A stretch of 64,000 bases of DNA from positions 13,085-77,084 of the forward strand of contig DASYCE010000016.1 of the NCBI GenBank assembly GCA_036500345.1, given 5' to 3'. Position numbers and translations under genes: made by a program. Numbering within the stretch: the first letter of the stretch is position 1; the number at the start of each line of letters is the position of its first letter. Shown in pieces: positions 26,479 to 38,151 of this stretch. Under the pieces are notes generated by a model. It was not told where the DNA came from, did not search any database, and saw only the letters and a program-made list of their open reading frames with translations. This DNA comes from Gemmatimonadales bacterium (GTDB lineage Bacteria; Gemmatimonadota; Gemmatimonadetes; Gemmatimonadales; GWC2-71-9).

Positions 26479-27321
26479 TCAGGGCCATCGTTGCTTCGCA
26501 AGGACGTCCCGTCGCTCTCCCCAGAGCCAGATTAGGAACTCGGTCATTTCCGGCACGCTTGACTTCCCGGTGCTCGCAGCAATCTGATGGTCAACGATGC
26601 TAACGCGCTCAAATGCCTTTAGCATCGCCGTCTTCATCGGGTTCAAGATTCTGTATATCGACCAGATGGCTCGCGGCGCTGCCCAGCGCTGCAACTGCGG
26701 CAATCGAACCAATTCCTCTAGTGATAGTTGCTGTTGATCGAGGCCGTGAACGATGCCTCCCATAAAGGTGCCAGCAACGCCAGCAAATTCAGCGGCTCTT
26801 TCCTGGATAAGCGCGATCTTGCCTGGCTCCATCTCGTCGTCAACGATGCTGCTCAGCAATCGATTCCACACCGAAAGCGGGTCAGTAACATTCTGCTGCA
26901 ACGTGAGTGCATCCAGATTGTAGTACCGAGTCGTCTTTGCGTATTGACTCAAGAACTCCAAGATCTTACGCTCGCGGGACGCGGTTTGAAGGGGTGCCAA
27001 TGTTGCTGAGATGTCAAGATGATCCTTCGCGGCGAGAGCGTCTATCAAAGTCACAAGGTCGTGGCCCAAGCCGCGGAGGTCTTCGCGGCTGGGCGCGTTG
27101 AGCTGATGATCCGCCATGTAATCGAAAATGAAAGCAAGTTTCAGCAACCGTTCCATTCCCACACTTACAAGGAGAAAGCCAGAGTAATATTTCCCCTTCT
27201 CGCCTATGCTTGCATTCCGCAGGGATGTGAGCCCCGTTGCCAAAGTCGACTCGATTAGAAAGGCTTCCTGTTGTATTAGGTGCCACGTTGGCGTGAACCA
27301 ATCACCTCTCAGCATATTCAT
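26479..27321 (-). CDS. hypothetical protein, HEPN-like
   Basis: GMERLLKL...LGHDL..L helical pattern typical of HEPN-fold proteins; follows the RM gene. Confidence 0.55.
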   Translation of the reverse strand: MNMLRGDWFTPTWHLIQQEAFLIESTLATGLTSLRNASIGEKGKYYSGFLLVSVGMERLLKLAFIFDYMADHQLNAPSREDLRGLGHDLVTLIDALAAKDHLDISATLAPLQTASRERKILEFLSQYAKTTRYYNLDALTLQQNVTDPLSVWNRLLSSIVDDEMEPGKIALIQERAAEFAGVAGTFMGGIVHGLDQQQLSLEELVRLPQLQRWAAPRAIWSIYRILNPMKTAMLKAFERVSIVDHQIAASTGKSSVPEMTEFLIWLWGERRDVLAKQRWP

Positions 27322-27414
27322 GACGGGATGGCGAACTGAGCAAGAATTGTTTCCATTCGCCGATCTCGACTTGCAACTTGGGATCTGATCGTGGAGGCTA
27401 GCGGCCTAGGACAT

Positions 27415-29988
27415 TCAGATCTGAACACTGGAGTCGCGCTCATTGTCATCGGTACGACCCTCAAGTTTCCGCGCAATATCCTGTACCCGATTGCGAAGCT
27501 TCACCCGCATTGAGATTGTCTCGCGGGTCTCGTCACCAATTTGCTTCCGCACAGCCAAGGAGCGCGGCAGTGGCAGCACGATCTCATGCACTCGACGGCC
27601 CAATGTGTCGATGATGTCCTGGGTGAATTGCTTCGCGCGAATCTGACGCATGACAATCGATGTGTTCAGGCACGCAAGCAGGAGCCAGGGGTCGAGGTCC
27701 TTTGGCTTCAGGACTCGCAATCGATAGATGTGACTTTGGTAGAGCATTGGAAGATCACTATCAGTTACAATGGCCGTCGTACCAATCAAGTACGTGCCAT
27801 CACGTACCAATAGGATGTCTCCGGCCGCTACCTCTGCCTTGCGCTTCTCTGACTCGTAGATCGAGCGGCTCACACCATGCTTGAAGTCTGCCTTGATTTC
27901 CCAGTTTGATAGATCTGATGTTCGAATGAACGGAATGCGCCCAGTTCCGTAGGCCATCTTGCCAATCTCGGTGCCTGTCTCGACGGCAAGAATTCTCGCA
28001 TCGACCAAATTCCCCACCGTCACTAGGTCATGAGTCTTGGACAGCTGTTGCAGTGCCGCCTCGATCTCCGGATCATAGTATTGCGGCACGAGGATGCGGT
28101 TGCGTACATCGGTGGATGGCATCTTGAAGCTGAGGTGATCCACCGCACCCATCTTACCCTTTAAGAACGCCTGATACCGAGCCGCGACCGTTGGCACTTC
28201 GTCAAGTAGCACCATTCTTCCGGATGGATCCCGCCGATATGTCGGATTGCCGCGCGAGTCGTGACCGCACCACTTCACCGCGCCAAAGAACATCGAGTGA
28301 GTCTTCCGAGGCTCGGTCTTCTCGAGTACCATGACAGCGACCTTCGTATGCGTGCCGCTCTTGCCGCTCGTCTTGAAGAGTGACTCCGGCATAGTGACGA
28401 TTGCTCGGATCGTCGTCCGCTCCATTAGATAGTTGATCACGTACTCATACGACGGATTTCCGAGAATGCTTTCAGGCATGACAATACCAAGGCGGCCACC
28501 CACTACCAGGAGCTGAAGACAGCGCTCCAAGAATAGGATGTGCGGCGCTTGCTCGTCACGCAACTTGTCTGACTTCGAGATCGTTTGTGACTTCTTATCC
28601 TTCGACCACTTATACCCGAGTTCGTACTGAGCGAGCACCTGTGCACCCTTCACTGGAATCTTCGACCCGAACGGCGGATTGGTCATTACAACATTGAAGC
28701 GGCCCAGCCTGACCCGGTCCCGCGCATCGACTCTCCACTCGTCCGGTCGCATAAGCGCATTTTCGCAAAACACACCACCGCGGCCGTCACCGATGATCGC
28801 CATGTAGGCTTTGGTCACCTTCGCTAGAAACGAGTCCTTGTCTAGTCCGCGAAAACACCTCGACGCCAGTTCTCGCTTCTTCCGGTCAAGGATGACCTCG
28901 GACCATTCCTTTTTCTTGCCCTCACGTTCGAGCTTACCCCACACATGTTCCAGCGCAGCAATTAGGAACCCGCCTGAACCACAGGCCGGGTCAATCAGCA
29001 GATCGCCTGGTTCTGGATCGATCATATCTACGATGAGCTTGATGACGTTGCGAGGTGTGAAAAATTGTCCCTCAGCTCCTCGCAGCGCTGGGCCGATGAA
29101 GACCTCGAATGCGTCTCCCACGGCATCTCGATCCGCATCGATGATGCAGTAAGTCTGAAGTTCCCCTACGACGTACATCAGACTGGCAGCATCCAGCGTC
29201 ACCGCATCCTTCGAGGTGAAGACATCGCTGTACTCACGCTTAACCTTGAACTCAAAAGTCTCGACTATGCGCTTGCGCACATCCTTCGCAGTTTCGTCCA
29301 CGCCACAGCGAAAGGATACCATTTCGTCCGGTGCGGTGTTGATCTCATCGTAGATCTTGCAAAAGAGGAGGTTGATGATCTCCTGTGCCAGCGATTCATC
29401 CCGGGTGATGCCGGTCGTATTGCCTGCGAGATGGTTCCTGATGTCACGAAACACGGCCTTTAGATTGGAAGGCTTCTTGAGCTCGCGACGGCAGTAGAGT
29501 CCGATGTCCTCGACACGTTGACCGTACCGCGGAATGTTCGGCAACTCTTGATAAGTCCGGCGCCCGCTGGCGTGGTGTACCTTTCGGATGTAGGCGTGCT
29601 CGCTACCGTTGAACCAGACGCCAATCTCCGCGGTGCTCATATCAAGGTACAATTTCAGCTGAGCCAGGCCCTCCTTGCGCCGTGGTCGCTTGCACTCGAC
29701 CACCATTTGAAGTTCGTCCTCTAGTCGGTTGTTGCTCGAGAAGACAGCAATGTCGATGGGGAATGTCTTCTTGTCGTCAGAAGGACTCTTCCGCACGCGA
29801 TACTGTGGCCTAGTCTGGATATGCGCCTTGGGATACCCGTAGTCGGCCACGAGGCGCTTCGCGAACACCTGCACAGCATTGATCTCTTCGGGAGTTGGGC
29901 TAACGGCGACACCGCTAATGTAGTCCTCAACAGCATCGGTGTCCGTAGGCGCAAGAACATGCGCAGCATTCGCACCGCGTCGAGCCAC
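27415..29988 (-). CDS. fused restriction endonuclease/N6-adenine methyltransferase/TRD (type IIG-like)
   Basis: N-terminal PIDIAVF...VVECK PD-(D/E)xK; GQFFTP, DPACGSGGFL, NPPF; C-terminal IPFIRTSD..GDILL TRD-like segment. Confidence 0.9.
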   Translation of the reverse strand: MARRGANAAHVLAPTDTDAVEDYISGVAVSPTPEEINAVQVFAKRLVADYGYPKAHIQTRPQYRVRKSPSDDKKTFPIDIAVFSSNNRLEDELQMVVECKRPRRKEGLAQLKLYLDMSTAEIGVWFNGSEHAYIRKVHHASGRRTYQELPNIPRYGQRVEDIGLYCRRELKKPSNLKAVFRDIRNHLAGNTTGITRDESLAQEIINLLFCKIYDEINTAPDEMVSFRCGVDETAKDVRKRIVETFEFKVKREYSDVFTSKDAVTLDAASLMYVVGELQTYCIIDADRDAVGDAFEVFIGPALRGAEGQFFTPRNVIKLIVDMIDPEPGDLLIDPACGSGGFLIAALEHVWGKLEREGKKKEWSEVILDRKKRELASRCFRGLDKDSFLAKVTKAYMAIIGDGRGGVFCENALMRPDEWRVDARDRVRLGRFNVVMTNPPFGSKIPVKGAQVLAQYELGYKWSKDKKSQTISKSDKLRDEQAPHILFLERCLQLLVVGGRLGIVMPESILGNPSYEYVINYLMERTTIRAIVTMPESLFKTSGKSGTHTKVAVMVLEKTEPRKTHSMFFGAVKWCGHDSRGNPTYRRDPSGRMVLLDEVPTVAARYQAFLKGKMGAVDHLSFKMPSTDVRNRILVPQYYDPEIEAALQQLSKTHDLVTVGNLVDARILAVETGTEIGKMAYGTGRIPFIRTSDLSNWEIKADFKHGVSRSIYESEKRKAEVAAGDILLVRDGTYLIGTTAIVTDSDLPMLYQSHIYRLRVLKPKDLDPWLLLACLNTSIVMRQIRAKQFTQDIIDTLGRRVHEIVLPLPRSLAVRKQIGDETRETISMRVKLRNRVQDIARKLEGRTDDNERDSSVQI

Positions 29989-30205
29989 TGTTCCCTCGTG
30001 TCTTGGCGAAGTGATTGGCAGGCTTGAAGATAGATCGGAATTTCTAATGGAATGTAAGCGGGGACTACTGCCAGCGCATCCCCCTCCAGCGCCGCTTCAA
30101 GAGTGGACAGAGAAGCCGGCTAATCGAGCGCCGCGCGATTCGCGGGTCCCAGCCGCAATCTTGCAGTAGCAGCAACGTCGGGCACGCGGCGAGTTCGAAA
30201 CTCGG

Positions 30206-30646
30206 TCACCTGGCCAGTGGCAATGTCCTTTGTTTGGCCAAAGCGTAAACGCCAATAGCGGCTGCCACCAACATCAGCCCCGCAAATAGCTGCGGACTCG
30301 AACGCTGACCGTTCGCCATGAAGTTCGCGAAGTGCTCGCAGTTATTCCCAAAGAGATCATAAAGCGGGTTGCACTCAGCCTCGCGAAGCCGCGCACGCGC
30401 GCCAACCTCGTCAACGATTTTGCCAATGATCTTCCAGTTGGCCCGGGACTCGTCGAGCCACTGCGACCTGAGCTGCGGCGGCGCCTGATCGACCACGACT
30501 GGACGCCAAGGTTCAGCCTCAGCGAGCGACAGCACGTTGCCAATGTCGAGCACACCGAAATGCTTCACGACCTTCTGCGGATTTTCTTGTTCAACCAGGT
30601 ACAAGCCGTTAGGAACTATCTGTCCGCTGAGTGCGCAATAGGGCAT
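30206..30646 (-). CDS. LRAT/NlpC-P60-like acyltransferase family protein
   Basis: KHFGV, YDLFGNNCEHFAN, C-terminal TM helix. Confidence 0.75.
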   Translation of the reverse strand: MPYCALSGQIVPNGLYLVEQENPQKVVKHFGVLDIGNVLSLAEAEPWRPVVVDQAPPQLRSQWLDESRANWKIIGKIVDEVGARARLREAECNPLYDLFGNNCEHFANFMANGQRSSPQLFAGLMLVAAAIGVYALAKQRTLPLAR

Positions 30647-33529: not shown

Positions 33530-35218
33530 CTAGGCGATGTTGTTGCGACCGGCGGCCTTGGCCAGGTACAGCGCCCTATCCGCCTGTTCCAACAACGCTC
33601 CTTCATTCGGCAGCGACGGGTCGAACTCGGCGACCCCGATACTCACGGTGATCTGCCCCGAGAGGAAACCCAGCCGCCGCCCCGACTCTTCCACCCCTTC
33701 CCGCACCGCGTCGGCCACCCGCAACGCACCGGCCCGGTCGGTCCTCGTCAACAACGCCACGAATTCGTCGCCGCCATATCGCGCCGCCATGTCGGTGGCG
33801 CGGATCGTCCGGCGCATCTCGTCGGCCACCACCCGCAACACCAGGTTGCCGCGCTCGTGCCCGTAGCGGTCGTTCAGCTCCTTCAACCGGTCGAGATCGA
33901 GGAAGAGCACCGCGAACGAATCGCCGCTGCGCTTGCTCCGCTCCATCTCGTGCGACAACCGCTGCTGCAGCGAGCGATAACTCGCCAACCCCGTCAGCGC
34001 ATCGGTGCTCGCGTCGCGCGACGCGTCGTCGGCCCGCTTGCTGAGCCACGGCACGCACTGCTTGAGCGATGCGCGCCCGAGTGCAGCAGCCTGCGCGAAG
34101 CGATGACAGGTCGGATAGCCGCACGCCCGGCAATCCCACGGCTTCCCGTTCGGCCCCGTCCCGATCGCCTCGAGGATCGCCCGCACCGCCACCGCGTCGG
34201 CGACAGTGCGATTGGTGTTGAACGGGAAGACCGCCGTGACCGATACTCCATCACCGTCTTCATTCACCACCGGAACGCGACTCCTCGCCGGTTCGTACTG
34301 CTGCACCAGCATCCGCCGCCGGAAGAGATCGTCGGCCGGCCCCGCCGCCGGATGCGCCAGCGCGCCGGCGTGGGACTGCAAGTCGACGAAGCCGAGATCG
34401 ATGTGATCGTGACCCACCGCGCGCGCCAGTGCCGGCAGCGTGTCGAGGCCACGAACCGCGAGGAGCCTCCGCCCCTTCGACGATCCAGACACCACCATTT
34501 CGAGCGCCAGACCGCCGGCAACCGAGAGATGGCGCCGCGTTTCGGGCGGCAACCGGGAGAAGGTCCGCGGCATCGCTTCGGGCCGCACTTCCCTCAATGC
34601 AAAGAGCTGCTCCAGATCGACGAAAGTCAGCGTAGCGTCAAGTTCTTTGACAGTTCCGGCCGTGCTGACCCCCGCATAGACCACCGGGAGCGATTCACCG
34701 TGACGGCTTCGCAGGAATCGAGCCTCGGCGACGCTCGGCGTCGTGACAGGTGCCAGATAGGGAACGAGCTCGGGATAATTGGCGGTAATGGTGGCCACGA
34801 CGACCGGATCGGTCGAGCGGACGAGGGTCCCCCAGTCGGGATCTTCCCACAACCTGAGGTATTCCTGCGCCACAAGTTCTTCGCCAATGACCCCCCGGGA
34901 GACGTGGCGGAAGCCGGCATCGTAGCAGGCGTTGACCAGCTGTTCGGGAGTCGCCGGATGAAAATGCGCCACCGCCTCCGGTGCCAGGATCAGGGCACCA
35001 TTTCCCGCCTCGGCGATGGCGATCGCGCGCTCGACCGCACCGGTGGCGGTGATCGCCCCGTGCGGACATGCGGGGATGCACTCGCCACACTTGATGCAGT
35101 TCTCCTCCACCACCTCGACGACGTGCGCCTCCGGCGGGAGGGCGATCGCGTCGGTGGGACAGACACGGACGCACGCCAGGCAAGCGACGCATCGAGTTTC
35201 GTCAACGGCGAGACGCAC
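33530..35218 (-). CDS. diguanylate cyclase with 2[4Fe-4S] ferredoxin, degenerate [FeFe]-hydrogenase-like and FeS domains
   Basis: CVACLACVRVCP, CIKCGECIPACP, DCRACGYPTC, RATD I-site, RYGGDEF. Confidence 0.9.
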   Translation of the reverse strand: MRLAVDETRCVACLACVRVCPTDAIALPPEAHVVEVVEENCIKCGECIPACPHGAITATGAVERAIAIAEAGNGALILAPEAVAHFHPATPEQLVNACYDAGFRHVSRGVIGEELVAQEYLRLWEDPDWGTLVRSTDPVVVATITANYPELVPYLAPVTTPSVAEARFLRSRHGESLPVVYAGVSTAGTVKELDATLTFVDLEQLFALREVRPEAMPRTFSRLPPETRRHLSVAGGLALEMVVSGSSKGRRLLAVRGLDTLPALARAVGHDHIDLGFVDLQSHAGALAHPAAGPADDLFRRRMLVQQYEPARSRVPVVNEDGDGVSVTAVFPFNTNRTVADAVAVRAILEAIGTGPNGKPWDCRACGYPTCHRFAQAAALGRASLKQCVPWLSKRADDASRDASTDALTGLASYRSLQQRLSHEMERSKRSGDSFAVLFLDLDRLKELNDRYGHERGNLVLRVVADEMRRTIRATDMAARYGGDEFVALLTRTDRAGALRVADAVREGVEESGRRLGFLSGQITVSIGVAEFDPSLPNEGALLEQADRALYLAKAAGRNNIA

Positions 35219-35397
35219 GCAGCCCTTTTGTTACAGAGGTTGTTGCTTTGGAGCCACTGTCAACATGGCGATCGAGTTGAGAACTGTCAATAGGTGTAGC
35301 AGTTCAAAGGCTTGTGAGAAAGCGACTTAGACGAACGGCGCATGGTGCGAGAAATCGGTGGCAAACGACGGTTCCGAGAGCGAATTACCTTTGATTC

Positions 35398-35604
35398 ATG
35401 AATCGCGCCACGGCAGTGCAGCTGGAAGTTCAGCGACGCCTTACCGCCGCGGAGCGGCTGGAAATCACCGCCCAGATGTGCGATGCGATGCGGACCCTCG
35501 TCGCTGCCGGGATCCGGATGAGGAACCCGGGGTGGGGTGAGGACGAGGTGCGGCACGAACTGCTGCGGATCTACGAGGCGCTGGCACCGGAAACTGCGGG
35601 TTAG
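35398..35604 (+). CDS. small helical hypothetical protein (type often paired with nucleotidyltransferases)
   Basis: Q....RRLT..ERL.....M.......AGIR.RNP pattern. Confidence 0.6.
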   Translation: MNRATAVQLEVQRRLTAAERLEITAQMCDAMRTLVAAGIRMRNPGWGEDEVRHELLRIYEALAPETAG

Positions 35605-36428
35605 GCCTCGTCCTTTGGCAAACGTCCTTCGCAGGCTTCGAGGAACAGGCGTCGCACCTCCTGCTTCTCAGCAGACAGCAGCTCTCGTTTCAGTACCGCT
35701 CTGCTACCGGCGAGGAGCCGCGCATCTCGATCGCGAGGGATGCCGCCGCCGCCGCGAATCGCTTCGATGAGGCCCCGCAACTCTCCCTCAGGCACCTCAA
35801 AAGCCGCCCTGCGGGCCATGGAAGCGAGGGTGGTATCGCTGGCAGTGACCAGTGGATCAGCTATCAGGGGCCGGTTTGGTGTTAGTGCATCCCTGGGCTT
35901 GCAACTGAGAAACGACGAAACGTCATCAGCGTGCCACTCGTGGCAAGTATCTGCCTCCTGGAGCAGGAAGAGCGACTGACTGCCGCGAGAGGGCTTGATC
36001 CCAACCAAGTGAACGCGAACTCCAAACTCCTGTGCTTGTTGGACCCCTACACGCAAATCCTCGTCTCCCGACAACAACACCGCATCGGACATGGCTCGAT
36101 TACGCGCAAGATTGATCATGTCGGTCACGATCAGCGAATCGACTCCCTTTTGTTCGCCGACACTGTTGACGAAGCCAAGGCGTACCTTGACGCCGTGTAG
36201 GTGGGCCAGAGCTATATGCTGTGAAGTTGGTCCTGTTGACGTCCCATCGTACCAGTACACCCGAAGAATTGGGACGCCGGAAATCTTCTCGGCGAATTCC
36301 TGAAACGCCGCGACGACTCGTTCATGATCGAGGCCAACCTCGCCCCGCTGAAGCTTTTTCCCATGCAGGAGCACCGATCCTTGCGCGAACAAATATCCGG
36401 CATCCACAAATACAGCTACGCGATCCAT
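35601..36428 (-). CDS. NYN domain (PIN-like) ribonuclease
   Basis: VFVDAGY, RVYWYDG, EQKGVDSLIVTDM, LLSGDEDL, LLQEAD. Confidence 0.92.
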   Translation of the reverse strand: MDRVAVFVDAGYLFAQGSVLLHGKKLQRGEVGLDHERVVAAFQEFAEKISGVPILRVYWYDGTSTGPTSQHIALAHLHGVKVRLGFVNSVGEQKGVDSLIVTDMINLARNRAMSDAVLLSGDEDLRVGVQQAQEFGVRVHLVGIKPSRGSQSLFLLQEADTCHEWHADDVSSFLSCKPRDALTPNRPLIADPLVTASDTTLASMARRAAFEVPEGELRGLIEAIRGGGGIPRDRDARLLAGSRAVLKRELLSAEKQEVRRLFLEACEGRLPKDEA

Positions 36429-36450
36429 GTAAACCTCTGGGACTAGACAT

Positions 36451-36479
36451 AAAGTGAAAAGGGCCCCCGAAGGGACCCT
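36451..36479 (-). terminator. intrinsic terminator 5' of the NYN gene
   Basis: AGGGTCCC-TTCG-GGGGCCCT followed by TTTCACTTT. Confidence 0.75.
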
Positions 36480-36532
36480 GTAGTACGCCGCCCCATTAAT
36501 TCGCGCAGAGCGCGTAGTCGGAGCAGCGTGCC
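36451..36532 (-). ncRNA. candidate ~80-nt structured RNA upstream of the NYN gene
   Basis: 10-bp stem ACGCUGCUCC/GGGGCGGCGU enclosing a CGCGC-UCU-GCGCG hairpin; TTGACT -35 at 36559-36564. Confidence 0.55.
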
Positions 36533-36609
36533 AAAACTATCGGCCAATTGGCCCCAAAAGTCAAGGCTAAGGCGGCCTAACTCGATCTCGGTGCGCAGCG
36601 CGCAAACAG

Positions 36610-38151
36610 TCAGCCGAGCTCATACTCCTTGAGCTTCCGATAGAGGGTCCGCTCCCCGATGCCGAGGACCTGGGCCGCCTTCCTACGGTTCCCCCGATGC
36701 TCGGTCAGGACCGCTTCGATCGCCGCCCGCTCGATCTCGGCCATCGTCATTCCCGGCCGGTAGATCACGGTCGTTGGCGGCGGCTCCTCCTCCGCTGCCG
36801 AAACCGGGCCAACCGCCGCGATCGGCAGCGCCACGGGAATCGTCGGGTCGGTGACCTCGATCAGCTGCACTTCGTGATGGCGCTCGTCGATCCGCCGCCG
36901 CAACTCCTCCAGTTGTGACCGCAGCTCCATCAGCGACCTGAGGATGAACTCGAACTCGGCGCCGCCCAGCGGCCGCTCGCCGAGTTGCGTGTGTGTGCCG
37001 ATCCGCATCGGGAGGAGCGACGGTGTCCCTTCGAGGACATCGGGCGGGATGTCGCCGGCCTGAATCTCGTGCACCGGCGCCAGCACCACCATCGATTCGA
37101 TCAGGTTGCGCAGCTGGCGCACATTCCCCGGCCACGGCGCCTGCACCAGCCGCTGCATCGCGTCGGCGGCGATCCCGGGGAAGGTGCGCTCGTGCTGCGC
37201 GGTGAATTCGCGGACGAAGCGCTTGACGAGGAGCGGAATGTCGTCGCGCCGCTCGCGCAGCGGCGGGAGATAGATCGAGAGGACGTTGAGGCGATAGAAG
37301 AGATCGTCGCGGAACTCGCCGCTCGCGACGCGATCCTTGAGCGGACGGTTGGTCGCTGCAACAACGCGCACATCGACCTTGATTGGTTGCACGCCGCCGA
37401 CGCGGAAGAACGAACGGGTCTCGAGAACCCGCAGCAGCTTGACCTGCACGCTGGCGGGGATCTCGCCGATCTCGTCGAGGAAAATCGTCCCTGTGTCGGC
37501 GAGCTCGAAGCGGCCGAGGCGGCGTTCGGCGGCACCGGTGAAGGCACCCTTCTCATGACCGAAGAGTTCGCTTTCGAGGAGCGTCTCGGGGAGTGCCGCG
37601 CAGTTGACCGCGATGAACGGGCGGCCGCGGCGCGGCGAGAGATCGTGAATTCCCTTCGCGACGAGTTCCTTGCCGGTGCCCGATTCGCCCTGGATCAGCA
37701 CCGTGCTCGACACCGGCGCCATCTGCTCGATCTTGACGAGGACTTCCTGGATCGCGGCGCTTTCGCCGAAGATTCCGGTGTGGCGCTGGAGATCGCGGCG
37801 ATCGACCATCCGGTGCACCGTTGCGGCGAGTTCGTCGATCGCGACCGGCTTGACGAGGATCTCGGTTGCGGCGAGGTGGACGGCGCGACTGGTGTTCTCG
37901 GAGTCGGTCGATTCGAGCAGTGCGAGGACGGCGACTTCGTGATCGCGCGCGTAGGTGGCGAGTCCCGCGGTCGACGATTCGTGGACGCCGCCGGTGATCA
38001 CCAGGAGTGATGGGTGATCGCGGCGAATGGCGGCGCGCGCTTCGTCGAGCGACGCGGCGACGGCAGAGGCGATGCCGGAGGCGCCGAGGGCGCGGTCGAG
38101 CGGGACCGCGGTTTCGAGATCGGCGAGGGTGATGACGACTTTGGCAGTCAT
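36610..38151 (-). CDS. sigma-54-dependent transcriptional activator (NtrC-like) with atypical receiver
   Basis: GESGTGKE, ESELFGHEKGAFTGA, FLDEIGE, WPGNVRQL, C-terminal Fis HTH. Confidence 0.93.
   Translation of the reverse strand: MTAKVVITLADLETAVPLDRALGASGIASAVAASLDEARAAIRRDHPSLLVITGGVHESSTAGLATYARDHEVAVLALLESTDSENTSRAVHLAATEILVKPVAIDELAATVHRMVDRRDLQRHTGIFGESAAIQEVLVKIEQMAPVSSTVLIQGESGTGKELVAKGIHDLSPRRGRPFIAVNCAALPETLLESELFGHEKGAFTGAAERRLGRFELADTGTIFLDEIGEIPASVQVKLLRVLETRSFFRVGGVQPIKVDVRVVAATNRPLKDRVASGEFRDDLFYRLNVLSIYLPPLRERRDDIPLLVKRFVREFTAQHERTFPGIAADAMQRLVQAPWPGNVRQLRNLIESMVVLAPVHEIQAGDIPPDVLEGTPSLLPMRIGTHTQLGERPLGGAEFEFILRSLMELRSQLEELRRRIDERHHEVQLIEVTDPTIPVALPIAAVGPVSAAEEEPPPTTVIYRPGMTMAEIERAAIEAVLTEHRGNRRKAAQVLGIGERTLYRKLKEYELG

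Follow-up and report, generated by a model that had tools for sequence, protein, structure and literature searches.

Comparative analysis of the window, the whole 64,000-nt stretch of Gemmatimonadales bacterium DNA considered here, indicates that it carries a mobile two-part cassette consisting of a conserved structured RNA and a gene for a predicted NYN/PIN-fold ribonuclease. The RNA-NYN cassette appears to be real and widespread and is apparently undescribed. We judge the balance to tilt slightly in favour of the cassette working as a toxin-antitoxin system of type III and the AbiF kind, equipped with a nuclease of PIN/NYN fold.

Results

The elements read on the minus strand by a first-pass annotation of this DNA, from a promoter through a stem, inner hairpin and terminator to the start of an NYN gene, are all present. 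A sigma70-type -35 box, TTGACT (36559-36564), recognised by sequence and by its spacing in homologues, is followed by a predicted -10 box (36534-36541), GATAGT or TAGTTT as judged from the distance to the -35. GATAGT (36541-36536) is separated from TTGACT (36564-36559) by a 17-nt spacer, and promoter-like sites number 2 at the locus compared with 0.4 ± 0.6 in shuffled sequence. The stem, P1, which with its loop occupies 36485-36529 and is defined by folding, covariation and conservation, pairs 36529-36519 with 36495-36485. The annotated 10-bp stem with two G-U pairs (36529-36520 with 36494-36485) is confirmed, while an eleventh, closing G-U pair (36519/36495), strongly conserved, had been overlooked. 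The loop is composed of a conserved ACUA (36518-36515), the inner hairpin (36514-36502) and a conserved UNAA (36499-36496). The inner hairpin is not a family-wide feature, being found only in the window and in an 81%-identical homologue (L002), and on comparison of the sequences it is a local expansion of a variable 4-6-nt apex. A conserved unpaired linker, UACUA(C) (36480-36485), leads to a predicted intrinsic terminator (36451-36479) with an 8-bp stem, cUUCGg loop and U-tract, its hairpin spanning 36479-36460 and being followed by TTTTCACTTT. Terminator-like sites as such occur in the region at chance level (2 against 2.1 ± 1.5 in shuffles). For the 91-nt region the folding energy is -42.8 kcal/mol (z -5.5), a value equalled by 0/200 shuffles, and the stem region minus the terminator still gives a z of -5.2.

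The NYN gene (35601-36428, minus strand), a predicted PIN-like RNase gene of 275 aa assigned by Pfam PF01936 and a structure model, begins with an ATG at 36428, 5 nt downstream of a Shine-Dalgarno-like AGAGG. A convergent 68-codon ORF within the insert (35398-35604, plus strand) has a tblastn match in the window's genome alone among all fetched loci and is therefore not a conserved partner. The Rfam scan of the window detected nothing at gathering score, sub-threshold E-value matches being at the level of chance, and the RNA model described below matches the window in a single copy.

Promoter, stem, terminator and NYN gene together form an insert of ∼1.3 kb (approximately 35331-36609) between a sigma54-activator gene and an FeS-GGDEF gene, and the same site is empty in 10/10 informative congeners, one further locus having ended too early to be informative. 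At the empty sites the activator gene is followed after ∼110-190 nt by the FeS-GGDEF gene, with neither an NYN gene nor an RNA-model match in between. The NYN gene is present in 2/61 related genomes, the window's genome counted, and the one relative carrying it (81% identity) has different flanking genes, a near-identical leader and its own TTGACT. GC3 is 0.62 for the NYN insert but 0.85 and 0.81 for the flanking genes. Combined, the absence of the insert in congeners, its travelling with the NYN gene and the differing GC3 show that the RNA element is to be counted with the NYN gene rather than with the activator. The more ordinary possibility is that a promoter, a 5'-stabilising hairpin and a leaky terminator damp an accessory gene or, as the first-pass annotation had itself raised, that the hairpin is the terminator of the sigma54-activator gene. 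Terminator-like hairpins are indeed common; however, this one is absent behind the activator in 10/10 informative congeners, accompanies the NYN gene to sites that are unrelated and has unpaired nucleotides retained in 11 phyla, and we regard such an explanation as very improbable.

Several features of these surroundings were also observed. The 3' end of the activator gene is an insertion spot, the empty-site sequence recurring at the far end of the insert (35322-35330, 36610-36618), and the closest relative (L256) has another insert of ∼80 nt at the same site. The gene at 33530-35218 (minus strand) fuses iron-only hydrogenase-like Fe-S domains to a GGDEF diguanylate cyclase; it stands behind the sigma54 activator across the genus and is possibly a gas or redox sensor. 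A low-GC island at 26479-30646 (minus strand) contains an uncharacterised 280-aa gene, and the gene at 27415-29988 is, we assume, an N6-methyltransferase/specificity-subunit-like fusion, which would make the island look like a restriction-modification system. Elsewhere some insertions lie in what we take to be housekeeping operons, the cassette standing between dnaK-like and dnaJ-like genes at L043, L065 and L140, a placement which puts the terminator inside a chaperone operon.

Conservation of the RNA was analysed at homologous loci. From 357 genome loci and 366 metagenome loci the 80 best of each were taken, together with all 16 of viral origin; 175 loci, redundancy included, were kept after removal of the locus of the window itself, a duplicate and a locus lacking a start. 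A covariance model was seeded with 66 sequences. In this seed, whose pairing counts lean toward structure because its members were picked for a clean stem, 93.2% of cells are paired compared with 37-57% in slid controls, 16/17 pairs changed on both sides compared with 9.9 ± 1.4 in shuffles (0/500), and compensatory changes occur at 8/9 pairs of P1 and 8/8 of the terminator. RNAalifold recovers the same P1 unprompted. The model matches within 250 nt upstream of the NYN gene at 164/175 loci (E ≤ 1), including 99 that were not seed members, and the named hosts of homologous cassettes represent 11 phyla, in addition to viral contigs. In the weakest matches (20-30 bits, mostly in the viral clade) it is the terminator that carries the score; these loci also fold into a P1-like stem with an ACUA-type loop. 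Thus the proposed check, conservation of the stem upstream of homologues, came out in favour of the annotation, with P1 retained and covarying.

Rows that scored low or were truncated (37) were first set aside, and individual bases were counted in 104 non-redundant ones. Every one of the eight highest mutual-information pairs is a helix pair, and no second covarying helix that would point to an H-type pseudoknot is seen among the top mutual-information pairs, a measure in which conserved columns cannot covary. The closing G-U pair of P1 is kept in 92/104 rows and the whole loop is 12-14 nt in 78/104. Within the loop U3 is retained in 85/104 rows, A4 in 76/104 and U at -4 in 77/104, while the final two bases are A in 91/104 and 97/104, and the linker reads UA-N(1-2)-UA in 83/104. 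The resulting unpaired consensus, a loop of A/C-N-U-A ... U-N-A-A and a linker of UAYUA, is what would be expected of a protein-binding surface.

TTGAC occurs within 50 nt upstream of the RNA in 95/147 distinct upstream segments compared with 4/139 control segments, and in 84 of those 95 it lies 30-35 nt from the RNA. A -35 box at this fixed distance suggests that transcription would start at the foot of P1, by spacing near 36530 in the window, and, together with the terminator, that the RNA would be ∼65-80 nt long, which agrees with the ∼80 nt anticipated by the annotation. At L100, L110, L130 and L141 a further short hairpin, its loop of GNRA type, lies ∼30 nt upstream of P1 in place of the usual -35 spacing, which suggests that the RNA of this subgroup extends further 5'.

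Homologous NYN genes are present on 16 viral contigs. The viral clade (L163-L178) is divergent (41-59% identity in the best segment); its P1 is longer and bulged, and genes resembling those for tail assembly are nearby, a typical place for accessory phage genes. An RNA pattern scan of viral contigs gave 42 matches, none genuine by the covariance model.

Searching by the RNA alone, in 604 genome slots with the centre genomes included, detected 13 new full-motif matches. Twelve of the 13 precede the same NYN gene or a remnant of it, of which 7 are intact or almost intact, 1 carries a frameshift, 2 are truncated and 2 are reduced to their first codons; at least five of the intact genes overlap with results of the protein-first search. 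The remaining match (L179, 77 bits) is an RNA without any gene. Five weak matches (26-32 bits) are mostly terminators, and one of the five precedes a fragment of another NYN family. By this search the RNA is specific to the homologous NYN nuclease. The gene is broken, remnant or absent behind 6/13 matches, and genomes with the RNA but no intact NYN gene lack an intact copy elsewhere in 5/5 searched. Judged from these sequences, the RNA often outlives its NYN gene, and leftover RNAs may be recent deletions or retained terminators. In two species sharing an NYN deletion the RNA is 72/76 identical, with P1 unchanged, compared with 88-90% in the flanks, a difference which is no more than suggestive.

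The RNA is single in 4/4 genomes having a model match, and both the type III-like layout and the single RNA copy described in the annotation fit these data. The rare duplicates are whole promoter-terminator units: in Azospirillum thermophilum the complete unit of promoter, RNA and terminator is present twice in tandem. The copy on the NGR234 plasmid of Sinorhizobium fredii has an intact RNA; its frame from the homologous start ends after 59 codons, and it adjoins a RES-Xre toxin-antitoxin pair. Extra promoter-RNA-terminator copies were also seen within 1 kb of an intact cassette at L102:3381-3463, L073:2159-2230 and L029:4307-4379, with a remnant NYN start in the L029 copy only. Locus L080 (2820-2990 and 3870-4130) has a leader with three repeated terminator-like hairpins and a fourth, a second leader with NYN start codons 3' of the gene, and an inverted RNA copy. 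A fragment of a different NYN family (L181:1501-1557, minus strand; G125:C1:1096484-1096828) is directly preceded by a -35/-10, a hairpin and a cUUCGg terminator of its own, suggesting that RNA leaders may be shared by several NYN clades; a viral scan for this other family found nothing.

The RNA is nearly always directly 5' of the NYN gene, usually no more than 30 nt from its start codon, a position that would also suit a cis autoregulatory leader. In that case P1 and the UA motifs of the nascent or read-through mRNA would be bound or cut by the nuclease itself or by some other ligand, synthesis of the nuclease would thereby be limited, and the short RNA would be a by-product and no antidote. 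The geometry is compatible with this, as the 3' strand of P1 can pair with the 5' arm of the terminator (∼-7 kcal/mol) and an intact P1 frees that arm (median 0.16, compared with 0.64 for shuffled upstream sequence), as in an anti-antiterminator; intact NYN genes without the RNA are likewise compatible. The alternative helix, however, does not clearly covary: cognate arms pair at -7.08 compared with -6.86 ± 0.14 for swapped arms (17/200), the same control giving 0/200 for P1 itself, and no cross-helix Watson-Crick covariation is prominent among the top mutual-information pairs. In addition, the tandem upstream copy at L250 and the gene-less copies at L179, L102 and L073 are superfluous for cis control. 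We hold control in cis to be the main rival reading, tentative and on the unlikely side. It is not exclusive of an antitoxin role, by analogy with RCd22, which acts both ways (PMC12373285).

No RNA is detectable upstream of seven intact NYN genes (L071, L078, L113, L145, L151, L161 and L162) that retain the four acidic residues, although one of these offers only 94 nt of upstream sequence and one has a transposase-like gene upstream; an eighth intact gene has a degenerate RNA only. Their positions on the tree are dispersed, most falling in a clade rich in Myxococcota, suggesting repeated loss of the RNA (9 changes on a FastTree tree). Two of the RNA-less genomes, both incomplete, have no RNA copy anywhere, and the RNA is likewise missing at 3/3 actinobacterial homologues that were examined (38-43% identity). 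Such intact genes count against an obligate toxicity of the predicted nuclease.

The window's protein matches Pfam PF01936 (NYN, E 1.2e-14) as its sole Pfam family and comprises an NYN domain (residues 1-172, with D9, D97, D122 and D124), a linker and a C-terminal four-helix domain (∼193-270). Its structure model (pLDDT 86.8) matches the MARF1 NYN domain (Z 17.3, rmsd 2.8, 147 residues aligned) and VPA0982 (2qip; Z 16.7). The acidic residues are kept at D9 in 166/169 rows, D97 and D122 in 169/169 and D124 in 168/169; these near-invariant aspartates make an active RNase likely, as predicted from the family. The C-terminal domain is confidently modelled (pLDDT 90.3) and has no Pfam match (no OST-HTH), no Atlas match and no Foldseek match at E ≤ 0.001; a centrin/EF-hand-like assignment relied on short sequence matches, which were not trusted. 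NCBIfam has no match to the protein, and PADLOC and PHROGs have weak matches only. The clade contains 807 clusters at 50% identity (E ≤ 1e-30), not all of which bear the RNA. Co-variation between protein and RNA (residue 16 with the loop UA; the loop UA with the linker) amounts to only 2 independent pairs.

Among neighbouring families of ≥100 aa, no recurrent protein partner is found across the set, the largest clusters comprising 4-5 related loci; as the small convergent ORF is likewise unique to the window's genome, this argues against a protein antitoxin. PADLOC matches 20/144 nearest ORFs at 79 loci, about half of them housekeeping-like, and convincing defence neighbours occur at ∼8/79 loci, both being raw counts without a control. 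The defence module proposed in the annotation thus has the viral contigs and, in this control-free count, some defence neighbours on its side, with a modest context overall that supports it weakly. HEC-09, the one stand-alone NYN defence candidate that has been assayed, reportedly gave no phage protection (bioRxiv 2024.01.29.577857), and its match to the window's NYN protein, 17 bits only, is distant. The CRISPR-associated NYN protein of B. fragilis is reported to be a non-specific RNA-trimming RNase (bioRxiv 2024.04.08.588522).

Discussion

A predicted, constitutively terminated small RNA with conserved loops of protein-binding-like character, standing before a likely RNase with no protein partner, points to an AbiF/RCd22-like arrangement, and a noncoding RNA with an intrinsic terminator lies between promoter and predicted toxin gene, as in type III systems. 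As we envisage it, the promoter would yield mostly an RNA of ∼65-80 nt ending at the terminator, and rare read-through would supply the nuclease mRNA. The RNA, in excess, would present P1, the G-U-closed loop and the UAYUA linker, bind the nuclease and hold it off. The RNA-inhibited RNase of the annotation is plausible. If transcription halted or the RNA were destroyed, on phage infection or cassette loss, free nuclease would degrade RNA, and the cassette could thereby act as a toxin and possibly in defence.

Inhibition is not the only role such an RNA might have, as it could instead activate or aim the nuclease or sense a phage product. The tight one-to-one linkage of RNA and gene, the conserved unpaired bases and a C-terminal helical domain without a Foldseek match at E ≤ 0.001 would suit a cofactor or sensor. 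The RNA-guided nuclease of the annotation, however, is not borne out, because the sole variable unpaired segment, ∼4-6 nt, is too short for a guide and no spacer or array flanks it, nor is complementarity to its own mRNA above chance; a cofactor or sensor role is in our view improbable. The longest antisense complement of the RNA, mostly 6-9 nt, has the same length whether its own mRNA or another is taken, and with complementarity at chance level a type I toxin-antitoxin was rejected. No conserved length of leader ORF indicative of a leader peptide was found.

Taking up the antitoxin reading again, we give roughly even chances to a widespread protein-RNA toxin-antitoxin family in which an RNase of PIN/NYN fold, shared with VapC and MARF1, is checked by a minimal single-copy RNA of ∼70 nt with a new fold and leftover RNAs immunise their hosts. 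If so, leftover copies would protect against incoming cassettes, an RNA antitoxin for a PIN-fold nuclease would mean that control of an RNase by RNA had arisen independently, and a large NYN clade would gain its first testable role. A strongly covarying RNA motif missing from Rfam is in any case added. The cassette is simple to test, being under 1 kb and present in cultured strains (Azospirillum).

No description of an NYN-linked RNA was found in the literature, within a search that covered neither the supplements of RNA-motif surveys nor subscription papers. The main text of Weinberg 2017 does not contain 'NYN', and two of the 5 NYN mentions in Fremin and Bhatt 2021 are rows for other taxa. 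The available text of the PIN classification (PMC5499597) contains neither 'type III' nor 'RNA antitoxin', and the RNA antitoxins described in the sources at hand target ToxN-type RNases, HEPN RNases (AbiF) and a deaminase (AvcD).

The cassette shares the NYN fold and conserved aspartates with LabA/DUF88-type proteins (PF01936; VPA0982, MARF1, the B. fragilis CRISPR NYN and HEC-09), but differs in its unmatched C-terminal four-helix domain and in its RNA, no noncoding RNA association being described for them in the texts consulted. VapBC combines a PIN toxin with a protein antitoxin; the NYN cassette resembles it as a mobile two-part cassette with a PIN-superfamily RNase, whereas its partner is an RNA. 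ToxIN/AbiQ, CptIN and TenpIN, as far as described in PMC5086642, place an RNA and terminator upstream of an endoribonuclease gene, as does the NYN cassette, which in contrast has no ToxN-type fold match, tandem repeats or covarying pseudoknot. Membership in ToxIN, CptIN or TenpIN was rejected, there being no RNA repeats and no ToxN and the best structures being NYN domains, and membership in AbiF because neither HEPN nor RF03085 was found. As described in PMC12373285, AbiF/RCd22 of C. difficile consists of one promoter, a noncoding RNA, a terminator and a nuclease expressed by read-through, RCd22 repressing AbiF both in cis, through termination, and in trans, through binding, and AbiF-type pairs are discussed as proposed ancestors of Cas13. 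AbiF/AbiD systems, to the extent described there, share with the NYN cassette the promoter, short structured RNA, intrinsic terminator and nuclease gene, the dispensability of an array and the prophage or accessory sites; they differ in having a HEPN (Abi_2) nuclease rather than a PIN/NYN acidic active site, and the NYN-cassette RNA matches neither the abiF motif (RF03085) nor another Rfam family. By analogy of layout, AbiF is thus a closer comparison for the NYN cassette than ToxIN.
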